This document shows, piece after piece, positions 4,661-61,757 of a stretch of 64,000 bases of DNA (position 1 is the stretch's first letter; the number at the start of each line of letters is the position of its first letter). Under the pieces are notes generated by a model. The model was not told the DNA's origin. It was given only the letters and a program-made list of their open reading frames with translations, and did no database searches. The position numbers and the translations under genes were made by a program. Source of the stretch: Candidatus Doudnabacteria bacterium (lineage in GTDB: Bacteria > Patescibacteriota > Doudnabacteria > UBA920); assembly GCA_023245895.1 (NCBI GenBank), contig JAHFJJ010000003.1:11343-75342 (forward strand), given 5' to 3'.

Positions 4661-4902
4661 GCGTCTGATCAGCGTTATTATCCGCGAGTAATCGGCGGCT
4701 GTTACATTGCGGCATTCATACCTTCGCCGCCGTCTTTGCCATCTTCGTCGTCTGTAGCAGGGGCATCAGTTGCAGGGGCGTCGGCCGTTCCGCCGTCTGC
4801 GCCCATGCCGTCTTCGTCGTCAAAAAACATATATTTTATTTTTTAATGGTAAGCCTAAAAACTTATAAAAATTATATCAAGGGATATTTATAATGTCTAG
4901 CG

Positions 4903-4954
4903 TAGCGTGCCCATTTATGGGCGTCCTCATATCGCCGATAAATCGGCACGCTAC
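4903..4954. repeat. Family C ~52-bp structured palindromic repeat, copy 1 (outer stem gtagcgtgcc/ggcacgctac, inner hairpins gcccatttatgggc and gccgataaatcggc)
   Basis: Near-identical copies at 6151-6203 and, inverted, at 47428-47480. Confidence 0.8.
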
Positions 4955-5433
4955 ATCTTATATTTAGTAAAATAATGTCCGGCACACAGCGCAATGGCTA
5001 TTGCATCTGCCGCGTCGTCGGGTTTGGGAGGTGTTTTGAGCTTAAAAGTTTGCTGTACTACATATTGCACCTGTTTTTTTTCGGCCTTGCCATAGCCGCA
5101 AATAAAATTTTTAACTTGCAGGGGCGTGAATTCAAAAATAGGCAATTTATTTTTTTGGCAAACAAGCAGGGCTACTCCCCTGGCTTGGGACACAGTCATT
5201 ACGGTTTTTTGGTTGGTGGTTAAAAAAAGTTTTTCTACTCCCACAGCTTCGGGCTTGTATTTTTTTATCAGCTGATTAACATCTGCCGCTAAAATTTCCA
5301 AGCGTTCCGCGTCTGATAATTTTTTGTCAGTTGATATAACCCCAAAGTCAACCAGCTCCGGTTGGGTTTTTGTCTGCTTGATAATGCCGAATCCGGTTGT
5401 GGCGGTTCCGGGATCTATGCCGAGTATTATCAT
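4951..5433 (-). CDS. ruvC: Crossover junction endodeoxyribonuclease RuvC
   Basis: MIILGIDPGTATTGFGII... RNase H-fold RuvC N-terminus, ~160 aa. Confidence 0.85.
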   Translation of the reverse strand: MIILGIDPGTATTGFGIIKQTKTQPELVDFGVISTDKKLSDAERLEILAADVNQLIKKYKPEAVGVEKLFLTTNQKTVMTVSQARGVALLVCQKNKLPIFEFTPLQVKNFICGYGKAEKKQVQYVVQQTFKLKTPPKPDDAADAIAIALCAGHYFTKYKM

Positions 5434-6146: not shown

Positions 6147-6150
6147 AAGT

Positions 6151-6203
6151 GTAGCGTGCCCATTTATGGGCGTCCTTGTACCGCCGATAAATCGGCACGC
6201 TAC
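6151..6203. repeat. Family C structured palindromic repeat, copy 2
   Basis: gtagcgtgcccatttatgggcgtccttgtaccgccgataaatcggcacgctac, between yebC start and rsmI stop. Confidence 0.8.
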
Positions 6204-6211
6204 AAGAAGAC

Positions 6212-9574: not shown

Positions 9575-9650
9575 GGGCGTGTAGCTCAGTTGGTAGAGCG
9601 GTCGTCTTATACACGACTGGTCGGGGGTCCGAGTCCCTCCACGCCCACCA
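9575..9650 (+). tRNA. tRNA-Ile (anticodon UAU), encoded CCA; atypical T-loop (C at position 55)
   Basis: Manual cloverleaf: acceptor gggcgtg/cacgccc, D-arm gctcagttggtagagc, anticodon stem gtcgt/acgac, loop cTTATac, T-arm ggggg-tccgagt-ccctc, CCA. Confidence 0.7.
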
Positions 9651-9866: not shown

Positions 9867-12347
9867 TTATATTATAGTAGCGCTGGCGACCTTATCTCCT
9901 TCATCCAACCTCATCACCCTTACGCCCTGAGTGGCTCTGCCTAATGTAGACACATTATTTAGCGGTGTGCGGATGGTTTGGCCCATTTTGGAGATTATTA
10001 CAAGGTCGTGTTCTTCGGCGTTGTTTAGGATGTACATGGCTACAATTTTGCCGGTCTTGGGGGTAACTTTTAGGGTTTTGATGCCGGAGCCGCCGCGGTT
10101 TTGGATTTTGTAGTATTGGCCTTCCGTTTTTTTGCCCAGGCCGTTTTCGGTTACCACCAAAACTTCCAGGGATTTTACATCAACTTCTTTTCTTATAATG
10201 TCCATGGAAATAATGTGGTCGTCTTTTTTAATGCGCATGCCGGTAACGCCGCTGGCGTTGCGGCCCATTGGGCGCACGTCTTTTTCGTTAAAGCGAATAG
10301 CCTGGCCGTTTTCCGTGGAAAGCATTATTTGGTCTTCTCCGGAAGAAGTTTCTACCCATTTCAATTCATCATCCCCTTTGAGGTTAATGGCAATCATACC
10401 GCTCTTGCGCACTTTGGCAAATTCTTCCCGCGCGACTTTTTTAATAAGGCCATTTTTGGTGGACATGACCAGGAATTTTCCGCCGGAGGCGGATCCGCCT
10501 CTGGCGGAGGCCATGGTTAAAATTGCTTGCGCGGTTTCATTGTTCTGGAGCTGTAGGAAGTTTACCAAGGCCTGGCCTTTGGCTGTCCTTGAGCCTTCGG
10601 GCAGTTCGTAAACTTTAGTCTGGAAGACGCGGCCTTTGTTGGTAAAGAAAAGAATGTCGTCGTGAGTGTGTGAAGATATAAGTTTGTCCACTACGTCTTC
10701 TTCTTTTAACGATTGGCCAATTATTCCTTTGCCGCCGCGGGCCTGGGCTTTGTAGGTATCGGGCGCCAGGCGTTTTACATAGCCGCTCTTGGTTACTGTA
10801 ATTATTACATTGCTTTCAGGGATTAAGTCTTCGGCGCTAAAGGAACCTATGGCGTTCTTGATTACCACAGTCCTGCGCTCGTCGCCGAATCTTTCTTTAA
10901 GGTCCAGCACCTCTTTTTTAATAATAGATAAAATCTTTTTAGCGGACTGCAAAATGCCTTCTAATTCTTCTATCAATGCTTTTTTTTCTTTCAGTTCATC
11001 GTCAATTTTTTTGCGTTCAAGGCCGGCCAAAGTCTGCAGGCGCATTTCCAAAATGGCGTCTGTCTGGATGTCGGTCAGCTTGAACTTCTTCATTAAGTTG
11101 ACCTTGGCTTCTTCCTTGGTCGGTGATTTGCGGATAATACTGATGACTTCATCAATATGGTCCAAGGCTTTCTTTAAGCCTTCCAAAATATGCGCGCGTT
11201 CTTTGGCTTTTTTAAGCTCAAAGGCTGTCCTTCTTTTTACCACAACCTGGCGGTGCTCCAGGAATTTTTCCAAAACCGTTTTTAGGTTTAAAACATGGGG
11301 CTCAATGCCCCCTACCAAGGCCAGCATGTTCAAATGGAAAGTTTCCTGCATTTGGGTGTAGGAAAAAAGCTGGTTTAAAATTTTGTTGGCCAGGCCGTCT
11401 TTTTTTATATCTACGACAATCCGCACGCCGTCTTTATCGCTTTCATCGCGCACGTCCTTAATGCCTTCTATTTTTTTCTCGCTGACCAGCAGGGCGATTT
11501 TTTCCAGCAGGGTGGCTTTGTTAACGCGGTAAGGAATTTCGTGGACTAAAATTTGGAAGGCCCCGCTCTTGGTCTCCACAATTTCAGTTTTTGCGCGCAT
11601 AACAATCCCGCCCTTGCCGGTAGCATAGGCGTTCTTTATGGCCGCGACATCGTAAATAATTCCGCCGGTGGGAAAGTCCGGTCCTTTAACAAATTCCATT
11701 AGGTCTTCGGTGGTGGCTTCGGGGTCATCAACCAGTTTTACAATCGCGTCGCAAATTTCCGTAAGGTTGTGCGGCGGAATATCTGTTGCCATGCCCACGG
11801 CAATGCCAAGTGTGCCGTTTAAAAGCAAATTAGGCACTTTGCCCGGAAAGACAATAGGTTCTTTGCGCGTGGCATCGTAGTTGTCGCGCCAGTCTACGGT
11901 TTCTTTGTCTAAATCTGTCAAAAGTTCTTCGGCTAAGGCGGACATCCTTGCTTCGGTGTACCTCATGGCCGCGGCGCCGTCGCCGTCCATAGAACCAAAG
12001 TTTCCCTGGCCGTCTATTAACGGGTAGCGCATGGCGAATTCCTGGGCCATGTGCACCATGGCGTCGTAAACCGAAGCGTCGCCATGCGGGTGGTATTTAC
12101 CCAAGACATCACCGACTACAGCCGCGGATTTGCGGAATTTAACGCTATGGCGCAGCCCCAGTTCGTGCATAACGTAAAGGATGCGGCGGTGCACGGGCTT
12201 AAGGCCGTCGCGTACATCGGGAAGGGCGCGGGAAACAATTACGCTCATGGCGTAATCCAAATACGACTCCTGCATTTCTGTTTGGATGTCGCGCTGTTTT
12301 ATTTCTCCTATGTCGGTTGATAGTTCTGCTTTGGAATCTTTGGGCAT
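9867..12347 (-). CDS. gyrA: DNA gyrase subunit A
   Basis: 826 aa. [27 protein letters not shown]-terminal signature, C-terminal beta-pinwheel repeats. Confidence 0.9.
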
Positions 12348-12448
12348 AGTGTGATTGACAAGATTAAGTAAGATTTAAATGATTGACATGATTGTCTGCA
12401 GTAATTCTTGTCATTCTTGCTCAATCTTTTAATTCTTTTAAATCAAAT

Positions 12449-14082: not shown

Positions 14083-14398
14083 ATATAAAACTGCTATAAT
14101 ATTTGGGCTTATTTGAATAAGTGCTAAAGCCCGCCGGAGGCGGGTCCGCCTCTGGCGGAAAATAATAATTATTAATCCCAAATAAGCCTTTGAAACAGCA
14201 CTTTTTAACAATTAACCAATGCAATACGTATCTTAAATTTGTTCAACGATTTTAAGTCGTTGATTTTTTATTTTCACCCTCCCCTAACCCCTCCCATCAA
14301 GGGAGGGGAAGACTGCAGACTGCAGTAGTTCCTTCCCCTTGATGGGGAAGGCTAGGAAGGGGCGAATGATCGTAGTTGGTTAGAGAAAGAAAATTAAT

Positions 14399-20026: not shown

Positions 20027-20470
20027 ATATGTGAGTTAGTTGATTATTGTCAGCTACCCGCCTTCTCCGCCTGAGGCGGATTCGGCGGGTTGTTCTCTAT
20101 TATAAATAAATTAAAGTGAACAAAAAAACAAATCCTTAAAGAATTTGTTAACGTTGAACTAAGCCATTGAGTTGACTTTGTAAGTTTTGGTTGTAGGGCT
20201 GTGAGTTTGCTATTCTTTCCAACTCCTTAAAAAATTAATAATACACATAATTTACAGTAAAGTTTTTAATTTGTCAACCCGGTAGAATCACATTGCAATT
20301 TATTGTAGAGAGTTTTTAAAATATTGGCAAGTTTTAACTTATATTTTGTAGTTTTGTTTGAAATGTAGCTCTACCGGGTCAAATATTTATTCTGCAGAAG
20401 TTGTAATTTTGTCTTTTGGCCGGGGTAGATGCCATGGCTTTGGGTATTTTGCCGTCTGGCGGAGCAGTAG

Positions 20471-25004: not shown

Positions 25005-25191
25005 TTTAGATAATCGTACTCTTATAGTTTAGCGGGATTTTTTAAAAAAGCAAACCCTAGCCTTATTTCAAACAAAAAACACCTGCGATTAAGAGATGTT
25101 TTTTGTGGAGCGGCTAACCCCAGTAGAAGCCCTCGGATGCACTCGTGCTTTACGGGGCGCAGGGGGAAAAGTTCCCTTACCTTAATCAAGC

Positions 25192-30587: not shown

Positions 30588-30593
30588 TCCTAA

Positions 30594-30630
30594 CAAGGGG
30601 AATCCTTGCGTAGCGCAAGGATTCCCCTTG
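30594..30630. repeat. Family D 37-bp perfect hairpin (caaggggaatccttgcg-tagc-gcaaggattccccttg), copy 1; also acts as the pyrD terminator
   Basis: Identical stem at 52725-52761. Confidence 0.75.
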
Positions 30631-30680
30631 TTTTTGGTACTAAGCTGTTATATAATTGATAGGCAAATTTAATATGTTAA

Positions 30681-31957: not shown

Positions 31958-31982
31958 GATCCCTCGGCTGCACTCGGGATGG
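31958..31982. repeat. Family B repeat fragment (gatccctcggctgcactcgggatgg)
   Basis: Same sequence as the right terminus of the 32965-33060 element. Confidence 0.5.
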
Positions 31983-32957: not shown

Positions 32958-32964
32958 AAAAAGT

Positions 32965-33060
32965 GTGTCATTCCGAGCGAGTGCATCCGAGAGAGGAATC
33001 TCTTACATCCGATAATCCACCAGTGTTAAGGGATCCCTCGGCTGCACTCGGGATGACACA
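32965..33060. repeat. Family B MITE-like element with terminal inverted repeats gtgtcattccgagcgagtgcatccgag ... ctcggctgcactcgggatgacac, filling the rbfA-nrnA intergenic region
   Basis: Related copies at 60007-60112, 60632-60706 (inside a CDS) and 61575-61645. Confidence 0.75.
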
Positions 33061-47405: not shown

Positions 47406-47427
47406 GCCGATGATCTAACTTGAACCT

Positions 47428-47480
47428 GTAGCGTGCCGATTTATCGGTGACTTAAGGACGCCCATAAATGGGCACGCTAC
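47428..47480. repeat. Family C structured palindromic repeat, copy 3 (inverted orientation)
   Basis: gtagcgtgccgatttatcggtgacttaaggacgcccataaatgggcacgctac. Confidence 0.8.
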
Positions 47481-47559
47481 GCAGATGCCCTTCCCATAAG
47501 GAAGGGTTTTGTCATATATGGTATAAAATTCTCTAAATTGTTGACCAAAAGCTGTTTAT

Positions 47560-52719: not shown

Positions 52720-52724
52720 CCATA

Positions 52725-52761
52725 CAAGGGGAATCCTTGCGCAGCGCAAGGATTCCCCTTG
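52725..52761. repeat. Family D 37-bp perfect hairpin, copy 2, between permease and ATPase genes
   Basis: caaggggaatccttgcgcagcgcaaggattccccttg. Confidence 0.75.
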
Positions 52762-52773
52762 TAGATAAAGTAT

Positions 52774-56992: not shown

Positions 56993-57045
56993 AAACTTTA
57001 TAAATTTTACATTAAATAAGAATAAAGATAAAGGATAAAAACTTT

Positions 57046-57075
57046 ACTAGCATAGTGCGCGGCCGCGCACTATGC
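57046..57075. promoter_or_regulatory. 30-bp perfect palindrome tagcatagtgcgcggccgcgcactatgcta at the 3' end of the PaaX-like gene
   Basis: Perfect dyad containing gcggccgc. A related imperfect palindrome at 57616-57650 lies upstream of the same gene. Confidence 0.55.
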
Positions 57076-57606
57076 TAGTTGAAATTTTCGTTTTAAATCG
57101 GTATCGTCATCTAACTCATCTATTCTTGCTAAGTGTATAAACTCAATTAAACCGGTTTCTTTTAAGTACTCAACAGCCGCCCGGTTTAACGGATAGGGGC
57201 TGATAAAAACACTGGCCTGCCACTTAATAAAGTTATTTTCTTTTAGGAGCCTTCTGAGCTTGTCTCGTTTATCTTTGGCTTCTTCGGGGATATCAAATGC
57301 CGCCAACCTCCATTTATTGTCCCACTTACCTTTTTCCTTTCTCGACAAGTGCGCTTTTAAAAACAAGGTTTCCATCTCGCCTTTTTTAGTGAGTTCAATA
57401 AAATGCCTCCCGTGCTTACTAATTTTTTTTATTAACCCCCGGGCCTTCAGGTTGTGTAAGGTATCATAAATTTTTTTGCTCTTGTAATTTTTTAACTGCT
57501 CGCGCCTCCAAGAGTCAGAATACTCCAAAGGCCAGGTGAAAAACCCCGTAGCGTCGCCTATGGCACTTAGCAATACAGATGAAAATGTCCCGTACTTTTT
57601 TGACAT
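57070..57606 (-). CDS. PaaX-like transcriptional regulator (wHTH + Cas2-like fold domain) - putative
   Basis: WRLAAFDIPEEAKDKRDKLRRLLKENNFIKWQASVFI resembles the Cas2-like middle domain of PaaX-family proteins. Confidence 0.4.
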   Translation of the reverse strand: MSKKYGTFSSVLLSAIGDATGFFTWPLEYSDSWRREQLKNYKSKKIYDTLHNLKARGLIKKISKHGRHFIELTKKGEMETLFLKAHLSRKEKGKWDNKWRLAAFDIPEEAKDKRDKLRRLLKENNFIKWQASVFISPYPLNRAAVEYLKETGLIEFIHLARIDELDDDTDLKRKFQLA

Positions 57607-57797
57607 AAAATTTAATACTAGTATAACACGCGGCCGCGTATAATACTAGTAAGGTGGAGACTTTGTAAAAGGTTGTTTAACCGATATTTTATATTTTGGA
57701 TAACGGTGTTTGTTTTTATATATAAATTAAAGCACGCAAATTCCGGATGGAACTTGCGTGCTAGTATGTTCAGGCTGTTGCCTGAACGGGATTAAAA

Positions 57798-58571: not shown

Positions 58572-59333
58572 CTATTGCGCGAACGAAAAGTTCACCGTGA
58601 TTGTGGTGATAACTTCAATTGGCTGGCCGTTCAGCATTTGGGGCTTGTAACGCCATTGTTTGACGGCTGAGATGGCCGCATCGTTCAGCAAGGGATGTCC
58701 GTGCAGAACTTTGAGGTTCTCAATCATCCCCTCTTTGTTGATTGTCGCTTGCAACATCACGTAATCCTGTACGCGTGCTGCTTTTGCCAAAGCCGGGTAG
58801 ACAGGTTTGACCTGGTCAATCAAGTTAGCCTGCGCGACATCTCCGCCAATTCTTTGGACTTGTGCCGGAGGGGGTGGAGGGGGTGGGGCAACCGGCGGAG
58901 GGGGCGGAGGCGGAGGTGCTGCTTGTTTGGTTGGTCCAAACAAGTCGCCTAAGAGTATTCCGGGGCCTCCCGGAGTTCCGTTCGGTACTCCCCCAACTAT
59001 ACCGGGTCCCGTAGGTGAGTCACCGATTGTGGGGAGGTCGTTTGCTACGATTATCTTTGGAATTTCTGTGGGCGTTGTGAGCCCGCCCGGATTGGTTGGT
59101 GTTGGTTTAGGTCTGGCGCTTCCGGGGACCGGTACGGTTTTAATTACCGCCGGGCCCGGAGGAGGAAGGGGCAGTTTCAGTTCGCTCGCCTGGAGAACTT
59201 GAGTTGTCATGTCGTCGTAAAATACGAGCGGCAGAACAATCAGCCCCAGGGCAAGGGCGAGATGGACCAATGCCGACAGGCCTGTTGATTTCCAGTCCCG
59301 CGGTTTATTGCCTAACAAACTATCTTCGAACAT
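58572..59333 (-). CDS. TonB-family protein (N-terminal TM anchor, Pro-rich spacer, TonB C-terminal domain)
   Basis: PPPPPPPVAPPPPPPP spacer. C-terminal ...YPALAKAARVQDYVMLQATINKEGMIENLKVLHGHPLLNDAAISAVKQWRYKP matches the TonB_C fold. Confidence 0.65.
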   Translation of the reverse strand: MFEDSLLGNKPRDWKSTGLSALVHLALALGLIVLPLVFYDDMTTQVLQASELKLPLPPPGPAVIKTVPVPGSARPKPTPTNPGGLTTPTEIPKIIVANDLPTIGDSPTGPGIVGGVPNGTPGGPGILLGDLFGPTKQAAPPPPPPPPVAPPPPPPPAQVQRIGGDVAQANLIDQVKPVYPALAKAARVQDYVMLQATINKEGMIENLKVLHGHPLLNDAAISAVKQWRYKPQMLNGQPIEVITTITVNFSFAQ

Positions 59334-60000: not shown

Positions 60001-60006
60001 AAAATA

Positions 60007-60112
60007 TGTCATTGCGAGGAGTCCCGCCCTTTTTGCATCAAAAGGACGGGACGACGAAGCAATCTCAAATTTATAGATTGCTTCGCTCGGATGCACTCGC
60101 TCGGAATGACAC
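60007..60112. repeat. Family B MITE-like element (TIRs tgtcattgcgag / ctcggaatgacaca with internal cgaagcaatct hairpin) in the rlmH / ligase-gene convergent spacer
   Basis: Read directly. Related to 32965-33060. Confidence 0.75.
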
Positions 60113-60117
60113 AAATA

Positions 60118-61476
60118 CTAATCCCCGCCTTGGGGATTTTTTGTTTCAGCGGCGATGATTCCTAAAATAACCCAAAGCAGCATTTGGGTTTGTTGGAGGG
60201 TGTAGAAGTAGTGGTCAAATTGCATTAGCACGAGGAAGGCGCAGAGGATGGTAGTAAATAGTAGGTAGTAGGTAGTAAGCTCAAAGCTAATCGGGGACTT
60301 TAATTTTTTTACCAGACCCCAAAGGTGAGAAAGGAAAATGGAGATTAAGATTAACGCGCCGGGGATGCCTAGTTCGGCGGCGGCAAGCAGGAAATAGTTG
60401 TGAATAGGCTGGATTTGCCATGGCCAAAGCCTTAAATAGCTAAATTGTTGCATGTGAAGCACGCTCTCCCCTATCCCAATGCCAAAGACTGGGTTTTCTT
60501 TTATCATTTGTAGCCCTAATTTCGCGTAAAAGATTCTTTCTAGAGAGGCACTATCACTTATTGTCGCGCGCGTTGAAAGGTAGGGGTGGAAAAGGATGAA
60601 TGAAGCCAAGATGGCCATCGCTGTCATTGCGAGTGCAACCGAAGCAATCTTTTTTTGGTGTGAGATTGCTTCGTCGGATGCACTCCTCGCAATGACAAGG
60701 GTATAGTAGAAAAACATGACTAGTCCTATCGCTAATGCTAAATAAGCCGCCCTTGAAAAGGTAACAGTTAGGCCAAGGGTGTTAATTAATATAGCCAGGT
60801 TGTATAAAAGTTTATTTTTAGAGTTTATTAAAAGGTAAATTGAAAAGAATACGCCAACTACCAAAAATGCAGATAGCAAGTTAGGGTGAGGAAAAGTTCC
60901 GTACCCTCTAATGTAAGCTGTTCCATCCGAAACAATCTTTGCTATACCCTGTAGATGTGGGGAAAGCACTTGCTCCCCTATCTTGCCCAAACCTAAGGAT
61001 TTTTGATTAAAAAACTGCCAAAGTGCCAAAATTGACTCAAAAGTCGCAAAAAAGACAAAACTCTTCAAAAATAAGCCTTTTATAGTTGTTTTACTAAATA
61101 AGTAATAAGCTGTTCCATATGAAACAGCTAGTTCTAGGTATTTTAAGAGGAACCAGTAGTTAAGTGAGCTGTTTGTTCTTAGTTTAAAAATTATCCCTAA
61201 AATAAGCCAAATTAAAAATATCGGTAATCCGAGATTTGCTATTTTTAGGTCTTCTTGGCTCAGTTTACTACTTTTTAGAGGTAAAATGAATAAAGTAGTC
61301 AAAATTAAGAAAATATCGCTTAAATATAAGGAAATAGAGGTAAAATCCGAATAAGCCCCAGTTTGGAAGGCTTCCTTGGTAGGGAAGACATAGCGGATAG
61401 GGAAAAAAAGGCTTGCCAAAAAGAGCAGGAAGAAGATTTGGGCAATGTTCAGCTTGTTTATCTTTTTTTCAAACAT
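60118..61476 (-). CDS. O-antigen ligase (Wzy_C) family membrane protein, with a 75-bp in-frame repeat insertion
   Basis: TFSRAAYLALAIGL and HNYFLLAAAELGIPG motifs of the O-antigen ligase family. ~12 TM helices. Residues AIAVIASATEAIFFWCEIASSDALLAMT are encoded by the family B element at 60632-60706. Confidence 0.6.
   Translation of the reverse strand: MFEKKINKLNIAQIFFLLFLASLFFPIRYVFPTKEAFQTGAYSDFTSISLYLSDIFLILTTLFILPLKSSKLSQEDLKIANLGLPIFLIWLILGIIFKLRTNSSLNYWFLLKYLELAVSYGTAYYLFSKTTIKGLFLKSFVFFATFESILALWQFFNQKSLGLGKIGEQVLSPHLQGIAKIVSDGTAYIRGYGTFPHPNLLSAFLVVGVFFSIYLLINSKNKLLYNLAILINTLGLTVTFSRAAYLALAIGLVMFFYYTLVIARSASDEAISHQKKIASVALAMTAMAILASFILFHPYLSTRATISDSASLERIFYAKLGLQMIKENPVFGIGIGESVLHMQQFSYLRLWPWQIQPIHNYFLLAAAELGIPGALILISIFLSHLWGLVKKLKSPISFELTTYYLLFTTILCAFLVLMQFDHYFYTLQQTQMLLWVILGIIAAETKNPQGGD
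60632..60706. repeat. Family B MITE-like element inserted in frame inside the O-antigen-ligase-like CDS
   Basis: tgtcattgcgagtgcaaccgaagcaatct-ttttttggtgtg-agattgcttcgtcggatgcactcctcgcaatgaca, 75 bp = 25 codons, no stop codons. Confidence 0.75.
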
Positions 61477-61574
61477 CGAGGTGCTTATTTGACAAAATGA
61501 TTAAATTATCATTTAAATAATGAAAAACTACTTAACAGCGTCTTTATTTAGACGCAAGTTCAAAAACCCTTAGT

Positions 61575-61645
61575 GTGTCATCCCGGCCGAGTGCATCCGA
61601 GAGTCGGGATCCAGTATATAAGCCAAGTTCTGGATCCCGGATATT
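61575..61645. repeat. Family B-related repeat (gtgtcatcccggccgagtgcatccgagagtcgggatccag + ggatccag...ctggatcc hairpin)
   Basis: Shares the gtgtcat...gagtgcatccgagag core with 32965-33060. Confidence 0.6.
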
Positions 61646-61757
61646 TTTACAGCCCTAAAAATTCCGGGATGGCATAGGTTTTTGGACTCACGTTATTAAG
61701 TCTAACATAAGCTTGGCTTTTGTGTTATAATTTTCAGAGTTTCTTAAGCAAATTTTT

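Follow-up and report, generated by a model that had tools for sequence, protein, structure and literature searches.

Selfish palindromes in genes were first described in Rickettsia. Ogata and colleagues, writing in 2000, are said to have found RPE-1 and its relatives (RPE stands for Rickettsia palindromic element) in frame in many Rickettsia housekeeping genes, where these palindromic repeats are translated and are tolerated in surface loops. Here we describe a new example, from a 64,000-nucleotide stretch of DNA (the window) from a Candidatus Doudnabacteria bacterium. The element, at positions 60622-60697 of the window, is a head-to-head dimer of two repetitive extragenic palindromic (REP)-type units, and it belongs to a dispersed family of repeats. 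We are confident that it is a non-autonomous palindrome that is tolerated, in frame, in a loop of an O-antigen-ligase-like protein. This kind of element is not itself new. Like RPE-1 in Rickettsia, these are in-frame palindromic repeats in housekeeping genes of a small-genome bacterium, but RPE-1, at about 100-150 bp, is longer, and neither its sequence nor its host range is related. For the Rickettsia palindromic elements, we found no description of one loop that is recurrently occupied by different subfamilies across orthologs.

Another described group is the CGTC-tagged REPs, a superfamily that takes in dRS3 from Neisseria and RPE-4 and RPE-6 from Rickettsia conorii (PMC3733652; Di Nocera, De Gregorio & Rocco 2013, BMC Genomics 14:522). 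Their CGTC tag is often TGTC and can also be CCTC, the published stem is 8-9 bp and begins with the pairs A-T and T-A, the loop is 4-5 nt, and the 3-nt tail has the consensus CCA. They are mostly found as head-to-head dimers and occur in several phyla with no dedicated transposase, and the intragenic dimers encode 20-30 amino acids (PMC3733652). Our element shares the unpaired [C/T]GTC tag, a stem that starts with AT, a 3-nt tail, the head-to-head arrangement with the tags facing outward, and the presence in several phyla. In 120 genome loci, we likewise found no transposase that recurs beside it. Its 25 intragenic amino acids fit the published range, and peptides of the forms VI..., ...RND, and ...AMT are typical of both. 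It differs in that the stem of its type of unit (B-type) has 5 Watson-Crick pairs plus a purine-rich mismatch block, and in that its loops are 6-12 nt or longer. Also, we did not find the sequence type GTCATTGCGAG...CGAAGCAATCTC in the supplementary text of Di Nocera 2013, and the host is Patescibacteria-like, a lineage that lies outside that survey. Because the tag, the AT start, the tail, the dimeric arrangement, and the intragenic location all agree, we file the element as a member or variant of the CGTC-tagged REP superfamily, and not as a MITE (miniature inverted-repeat transposable element).

The element also resembles the REPINs that are associated with RAYTs (REP-associated tyrosine transposases). 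In both cases, two inverted REP units make up one long hairpin, which behaves as the replicating unit, and there is no target-site duplication. But the tag here is TGTC or CGTC instead of GTAG, we found no RAYT gene that is flanked by these units, and the arms are conserved across phyla, while REPINs are usually genome-specific. Some bacterial MITEs (the QMITEs of Coxiella, PMC5896051; Correia/NEMIS; and Nezha) are similarly small, non-autonomous, and hairpin-forming, and sometimes extend or interrupt open reading frames (ORFs) in frame. However, MITEs have target-site duplications and terminal inverted repeats derived from an insertion sequence (IS), which we did not find here. A full-text search of the literature for the element's sequence strings turned up only coincidental matches to primers, and searching for Patescibacteria or the Candidate Phyla Radiation (CPR) together with palindromic repeats gave nothing relevant. 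In the papers that could be searched, we found no report of this sequence or of repeats like it in Patescibacteria.

The element is a dimer of two REP-like units

The two termini of the element are copies of GTCATTGCGAG, at 60623-60633 on the forward strand and at 60686-60696 on the reverse strand. They are complementary at 11 of 11 positions, or at 12 of 12 if the tag bases are included. The core of the element, from GTCAT to ATGAC, is therefore 60623-60696 (74 nt). A first-pass annotation of the window had these termini and the internal hairpin exactly right, but given where GTCATTGCGAG lies, the interval that it proposed (60632-60706) is shifted by about 10 nt to the right. The arms of the inner hairpin are 11 nt each (CGAAGCAATCT, at 60640-60650 on the forward strand and 60663-60673 on the reverse strand). 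Across the window, there are 5 matches to GTCATTGCGAG with at most one mismatch, versus 0.45 expected.

The whole 74 nt is predicted to fold into a single long imperfect hairpin, with a free energy of -42.8 kcal/mol for the forward strand and -39.0 kcal/mol for the gene strand. The corresponding z-scores are -6.3 and -7.1, and none of 200 shuffled sequences folded equally well.

Each unit begins with a tag ([T/C]GTC), which is followed by AT-NNN and GAG; after the loop come (C)GA(A), N'N'N'-AT, and a 3-nt tail (C[TC]N). In this element, the loops are TGCAAC (6 nt) in the short unit and GAGTGCATCCGA (12 nt) in the long unit; some other copies have longer loops with nested hairpins. Both in the window and in related contigs, the same loop module is joined to other stems (ATTCC, ATCCC, ATCCT, or ATCGC). 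The stems of all of the units begin with AT, and the dimer that starts near 61574 has a unit stem of 8 bp. The tails are CTC or CTT in B-type units and CCA or CCC in the ATCCC type. In 2.2 Mb of DNA, we found 7 alternative stem triplets, and these covary: among 44 distinct units whose triplet is not TGC, 30 have complementary triplets, versus 0.7 expected. The tag bases are also consistent. GTCAT is preceded by T in 28 of 32 copies and by C in 2 of 32, and ATGAC is followed by A in 30 of 32. The window's element has TGTC at both ends.

Related repeats are found across phyla and in frame within other genes

The general motif GTCATTGCGAG-N(1-30)-GAAGCAATCTC is found in at least 120 stretches from IMG/VR contigs and in at least 120 stretches from GTDB species genomes; in the latter, we estimate that about 2 matches would be expected by chance. 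Among the matches listed, the hosts include Chloroflexota, Bacteroidota, Pseudomonadota, Patescibacteria, Planctomycetota, Omnitrophota, Bacillota, Atribacterota, Nitrospirota, and others. Cultured isolates are also among the matches listed, for instance Sporomusa malonica, Chryseobacterium herbae, Flavobacterium defluvii, Litorivivens lipolytica, and Chloroflexus islandicus.

A more specific query is the exact 33-nt long arm (B1), which has 43 copies on 42 metagenome stretches, in many unrelated contexts. As the first-pass annotation maintained, this is a repeated element and not native sequence. B1 itself was not found in viral contigs (IMG/VR), although the general motif is common there. 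Head-to-head dimers account for 35 of the 43 copies, and the halves of the dimer also occur singly in other genomes. In some loci from Chloroflexus and Caldatribacterium (L128 at 1372-1508, L165, and L179), single units of the form GTCATTGCGAG-hairpin-CGAAGCAATCTC are arranged in head-to-tail tandem arrays that repeat about every 50 nt, instead of forming inverted dimers.

Roughly 15 of the 43 copies of B1 lie inside long ORFs, and every one of them is in the VIARSAS frame. (Three of the six combinations of frame and orientation are open.) By their Pfam matches, the host proteins include acetyl-CoA synthetase (AcsA), GATase_5, peptidase M16, GatB, RecJ, UvrC, and the beta subunit of ATP synthase. 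Other in-frame copies are in a tRNA_edit (ybaK-like) protein (three orthologs, all at the same site), one membrane protein, and two more orthologs of the ligase. The lengths of the intragenic copies are selected as well. The distance from GTCAT to ATGAC is of the form 3n+2, which becomes 3n with one tag base, in 11 of 12 complete intragenic dimers but in just 9 of 23 dimers elsewhere (P = 0.004, Fisher exact test). The multiple-of-three signature that the first-pass annotation proposed holds. Such filters on frame and length would be expected for a translated element, and they speak against its removal at the RNA level.

The element-coded residues are modeled within two membrane helices

The gene that contains the element encodes a protein that matches Wzy_C (PF04932) with E = 8.1e-18 and 65 bits, versus a cut-off of 31.7 bits. 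The gene is convergent with rlmH. This synteny is conserved among its orthologs, which number in the hundreds at 47-65% identity. An AlphaFold model that was built with 39 sequences has a mean pLDDT (predicted local distance difference test) of 87.9 and a pTM (predicted template modeling score) of 0.90, and its best match in PDB is the WaaL O-antigen ligase (7tpg_B; E = 5.6e-7, TM score of 0.52-0.57). By its domain and its predicted fold, the protein is a WaaL-like glycan ligase, with putative ligase activity.

The element is read through as 25 codons (60622-60696, residues 261-285, VIARSASDEAISHQKKIASVALAMT) without a stop codon or a frameshift, which bears out the first-pass annotation's claim of an in-frame insertion. 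It is probably translated, and its 25 residues would be hydrophobic, then polar, then hydrophobic again (VIA-RSASDEAISHQKK-IASVALAMT). The predicted peptides from the region of the junctions are FFYYTLVIAR, SASDEAISHQK, and IASVALAMTAMAILASF. The model has a helix at 242-262, a 5-residue turn at 263-267 (ARSAS), and another helix at 268-295, with pLDDT of 80-98 in this region. The model thus places the element-coded residues at the end of one transmembrane helix, in the turn, and over the first 18 residues of the helix that follows. The turn is probably cytoplasmic, given the positive-inside rule (the native loops are rich in K and R), the topology of WaaL, and the large next loop with its conserved R and H residues.

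We compared the lengths of the stretch between two conserved anchors, SR and xP[YF]L. This stretch is 54 amino acids in the window's protein and 45-48 amino acids in its closest element-free orthologs (P0003, P0002, and P0054). Across all of the element-free orthologs, it ranges from 37 to about 50 amino acids. The first-pass annotation had the element adding about 25 residues to a loop. The element does code for 25 residues, but the loop has a net growth of only 6-9 amino acids over the nearest element-free orthologs, and the residues are modeled in two helices and a turn. A clean addition of 25 residues is not supported.

We found the element, unchanged, in three independent assemblies of one population, at 99.9% identity (the strain variants are L001 and L291).

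The same loop is recurrently occupied

Among 120 orthologs of the ligase, at least 22 have a REP-type peptide in this loop, and we confirmed this with DNA sequence in seven cases. The same dimer is found in the window's protein and in P0073, P0036, and P0033, and L254 is a fifth carrier. The loop is also occupied by five variants of the dimer, by one in another frame (LRGG...RRSNL), and, in 12 orthologs, by a second subtype that encodes the peptide RHPE...RMT (from GTCATCCTGAG). Elsewhere in the protein body, none has a REP-type peptide; P0018 and P0019 have one in the C-terminal tail.

Between carriers of the same dimer, identity is 86-93% for the whole elements and about 98% for the arms, but only about 60% for the 150-nt flanks. 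The left junctions lie 17-23 amino acids past the SR anchor, and the reading phases differ (DNA sequence bears out phase 0 and the RHPE phase, and the SLRG phase is seen at the protein level only). In a neighbor-joining tree that was built with the loop masked, the window's protein groups with the element-free P0003, P0002, and P0054. The other carriers are in a distant clade, in which REP-bearing loops are the rule and the subtypes alternate between sisters. In P0087, whose loop was supposedly element-free, the DNA of the loop contains a decayed H-type unit.

Other loops of the ligase tolerate other palindromic inserts, of the PRG...PRG and GGSASGG types. A PRG(x)nPRG insert is found in the N-terminal loop after the second transmembrane helix of P0004, P0005, P0006, P0009, P0011, P0013-P0015, P0023, and P0024. 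It is encoded by palindromes that contain CCACGTGG (for an example at the DNA level, see L003 at about 2930-2990).

We also compared the beta subunit of ATP synthase (AtpD) from a contig that carries B1 with 120 close relatives, several of which are named as Patescibacteria or Candidatus Doudnabacteria. At one loop of the N-terminal barrel, the dimer is common to three relatives (86-88% identity) and is visibly decaying, and 14 other relatives have unrelated inserts at that loop. A GGSASGG palindrome is found at two other spots in AtpD. This pattern favors heavy bombardment by palindromic repeats, with survival in only a few permissive loops.

How did the element come to be in this loop?

The element landed in, or replaced part of, the sequence that encodes the turn between two transmembrane helices of the ligase, with the frame kept. 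We propose that this was a tolerated and essentially selfish event and not an adaptation. Lineages such as this one would be full of such repeats, and selection would purge all but the insertions with open frames that preserve the gene's frame, in a few permissive loops. Such a filter would explain why the same loop is occupied repeatedly. By analogy with REP and REPIN elements, the repeats probably spread as single-stranded hairpin DNA. The recurrence could be due to this selection filter alone, or persistence with swapping of subtypes or else targeting could contribute too; we favor the filter.

Several observations weigh against this account. If the 25 element-coded residues are removed from the window's loop, then 29 amino acids remain, which is below the minimum of 37 for element-free orthologs. 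So a simple insertion does not suffice: some native codons were lost or replaced, and residues coded by the repeat have taken over their role. We found no empty-site allele, as L001 and L291 both carry the element, and the closest element-free ortholog with DNA sequence (P0002) is just 63% identical, which is too distant to set the element's boundaries. In five ligase orthologs, the near-identical asymmetric dimer keeps one orientation and one frame, which could also reflect targeting or gene conversion and not just a selection filter. Finally, the B-type monomer's stem has only 5 Watson-Crick pairs (ATTGC/GCAAT) before the GAG/(C)GAA mismatches, and by nearest-neighbor rules, single monomers fold no better than shuffled sequences do, so it is the covariation, and not the predicted folding, that argues for unit hairpins.

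The alternative that survives best is a long-lived REP nest: a single ancient insertion, inherited vertically, that has been refreshed or switched between subtypes by gene conversion or recombination and that has decayed in some lineages. In one large clade, most of the loops have a REP or another palindromic insert, with B and H types alternating between sisters. The decayed unit in P0087, small hairpins that are nested within REP loops, and the carriers in the tRNA_edit and AtpD families, which show vertical inheritance with decay, all fit with this idea as well. But a single insertion does not account well for the three reading phases (with the SLRG phase seen in proteins only) or for the range of left junctions, the window's protein sits among element-free relatives, and the arms are far more similar than the flanks are. 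We consider a long-lived nest to be possible but doubtful.

A more speculative idea is that the recurrence in this loop goes beyond survivorship. Machinery that is shared across phyla would recognize these hairpins and insert or convert them where the DNA tends to form structures, for example where T-rich helix codons precede A-rich lysine codons. The dimers would then be reusable helix-turn-helix or loop cassettes that remodel essential proteins of Patescibacteria. When we folded four empty loops to test for a hairpin of T-run and A-run as the target, the results were unremarkable and heterogeneous. We think that targeting of this kind is improbable.

The first-pass annotation labeled the element as a MITE, that is, as a deletion derivative of an IS that is moved by a DDE transposase, which would recognize the 11-nt terminal inverted repeats and make a target-site duplication. 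The perfect 11- or 12-nt inverted repeats, the small size, and the many dispersed copies would fit. However, direct repeats of 2-8 nt flank just 0-2 of 32 copies, which is at or below chance, with either definition of the boundaries. Each half of the dimer has its own covarying stem, and the halves are found alone or in tandem arrays in other genomes. No gene recurs beside the element in 120 genome loci, and in the loci that we inspected, no full-length IS has the element's TGTGTCATTGCGAG termini. The label does not hold up, and we consider a classical MITE to be very unlikely.

Two candidates for an associated enzyme were rejected. The top cluster of ORFs in the 120 genome loci, 'UvrA', was an effect of single linkage among ABC ATPases; only two of its genes are real UvrA genes, and these are kilobases away from the element. 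A tblastn search of the 2.2 Mb of DNA with five sequences of RAYTs or TIRYTs (terminal inverted repeat-associated tyrosine transposases) gave one match, in L273, and none in the window. L273, whose contig carries a B1 dimer, has a RAYT/IS200-like Y1 (HUH) transposase gene at 11654-12403 that is 42% identical to a RAYT-family sequence from Geobacter. This sole Y1 transposase is flanked by its own unique 17-nt inverted repeats (AAAGGTGTCAGGAGCC), which are unrelated to the TGTC REPs, and it is not flanked by those REPs. The gene is preceded by a perfect 15-bp hairpin that contains CATTGC/GCAATG.

Alternatively, the hairpin might be kept for a function at the level of nucleic acids: as a stabilizer of mRNA, as an RNase site, or as a translational pause between transmembrane helices. 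The hairpin would be very stable in mRNA, and its arms are conserved far above the synonymous level of the flanks. But the same element is found in soluble housekeeping proteins and in intergenic DNA, and close orthologs of the ligase lack it. The hairpin is not followed by a U-tract, and no terminator was called there. Searching the window against Rfam yielded only tRNAs at the gathering threshold; over the element, there was a chance match to a miRNA (27 bits versus a cut-off of 70), and canonical copies in 16 other loci had no match. We see little chance that such a function explains the element.

That the segment is native to the ligase, or an artifact of assembly, is barely credible: P0073, P0036, P0033, and L254 have nearly the same 25 residues in this loop, which was the first-pass annotation's own grounds for doubt, but the identical 33-nt arm is also in at least 10 unrelated genes and at many intergenic sites, so the abundance of other copies defeats this reading, and the nearest orthologs lack the segment and the three independent assemblies agree.

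Other palindromic repeats in the window

The window contains three more complete dimers of this type and two fragments (Table 1). All four related copies that the first-pass annotation listed (at 32965-33060, 60007-60112, 61575-61645, and 31958-31982) do exist, but the third extends to about 61674, with a degenerate right terminus (ATGGCA). All four of the window's dimers are head-to-head, and three of them lie within 1.7 kb (60006-61674), at the 3' end of the ligase gene, inside it, and upstream of it (P ~ 0.008 if placement were uniform). This clustering may reflect local hopping or a regional preference. The spacer between the ligase gene and rlmH is 117 bp in the window, versus 10-46 bp in six orthologous loci, which is direct comparative evidence that the copy in this spacer is an insertion.

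Table 1. Positions in the window of the element, its parts, its host gene, and related repeats
Feature	Position	Strand	Description
Complete element	60622-60697	-	Two TGTC-tagged REP-like units, head to head, as a dimer; 76 nt including the T/A tag bases
Long monomer (5' in gene orientation)	60662-60697	-	T-GTCATTGCGAG-GAGTGCATCCGA-CGAAGCAATCTC; encodes VIARSASDEAIS
Inter-monomer spacer, A/T-rich	60652-60661	.	Most variable part among copies; encodes the HQKK region
Short monomer	60622-60651	+	T-GTCATTGCGAG-TGCAAC-CGAAGCAATCTT; gene strand encodes IASVALAMT
Host gene, WaaL-like polytopic membrane protein (452 amino acids)	60118-61476	-	Pfam Wzy_C (PF04932)
Related REP dimer, ligase/rlmH spacer	60008-60110 (feature 60006-60113)	+	GTCAT to ATGAC, 103 nt
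Related REP dimer, ATCCC stem type	about 61574-61674	+	Has the same GAGTGCATCCGAG loop; lies upstream of the start of the ligase gene by about 100 bp
Related intergenic REP dimer, ATTCC stem type	32967-33057 (feature 32964-33060)	+	Same loop module
Solo fragment, right arm of a REP unit	31958-31982	+	
Further fragment	near 25135		

Palindromic repeats are unusually abundant in the window. One of another kind (TTTTCCGCCGGAGGCGGATCCGCCTCTGGCGG) is in frame within the gene for the 835-residue GyrA, at 10475-10507 (ORF 9870-12374, reverse strand), with a second copy at 14131-14163 that is intergenic. This type of repeat, which encodes GGSASGG peptides, is also in frame in the ligase orthologs P0005 and P0022 and in many orthologs of AtpD. 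A palindromic family of about 57 nt (AGYGTAGCGTGCC-CATTTATGGGC...GCCGATAAATCGGCACGCTACA) has copies at 4899-4955, 6148-6204, and 47425-47481; the second of these is directly upstream of the start of a YebC/TACO1-family gene. There is also a pair of 73-nt repeats in inverted orientation (1703-1775 and 20054-20126; 86% complementary), perfect 39-nt palindromes (ACAAGGGGAATCCTTGCG...) at 30593-30631 and 52724-52762, and palindromes with a GC core (TACTAGCATAGTGCGCGGCCGCGCACTATGCTAGT) at 57045-57079 and 57616-57650.

Near the ligase gene, a terminator-like hairpin with a T-run (AATCCCCGCCTTGGGGATT, 60120-60138) was called on both strands and overlaps the last codons and the stop codon of the ligase ORF. 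This hairpin is shared with the convergent rlmH, and it apparently encodes the C-terminal peptide ...KNPQxGD that is conserved in many of the ligase's orthologs. Adjoining rlmH, at 58572-59333 on the reverse strand, is a gene for a TonB_C-domain protein with very long runs of proline (PPPPPPPPVAPPPPPPPP), which would be odd if the cell is of the Patescibacteria type, without an outer membrane. Finally, ARAGORN identified a tRNA-Ile with the anticodon TAT (UAU) at 9575-9650. In most bacteria, AUA is read by a CAU tRNA with a lysidine modification, so a UAU tRNA-Ile is uncommon.

Implications

These results extend the translated palindromic selfish DNA of the Rickettsia type to Patescibacteria-like lineages, with in-frame copies in atpD, gatB, uvrC, recJ, and other genes. 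In this ligase, repeat-coded residues are now, according to the model, part of two membrane helices. The arms of this type of repeat are common to isolates and metagenome-assembled genomes from many phyla, without a known mobilizing enzyme. For annotation, this means that apparent indels in CPR proteins may often derive from repeats, and that small ORFs that are called over such repeats are spurious. In the loops of the ligase and of AtpD, gains, decay, and subtype swaps form a natural series, which could be used to learn how CGTC-type REPs move.

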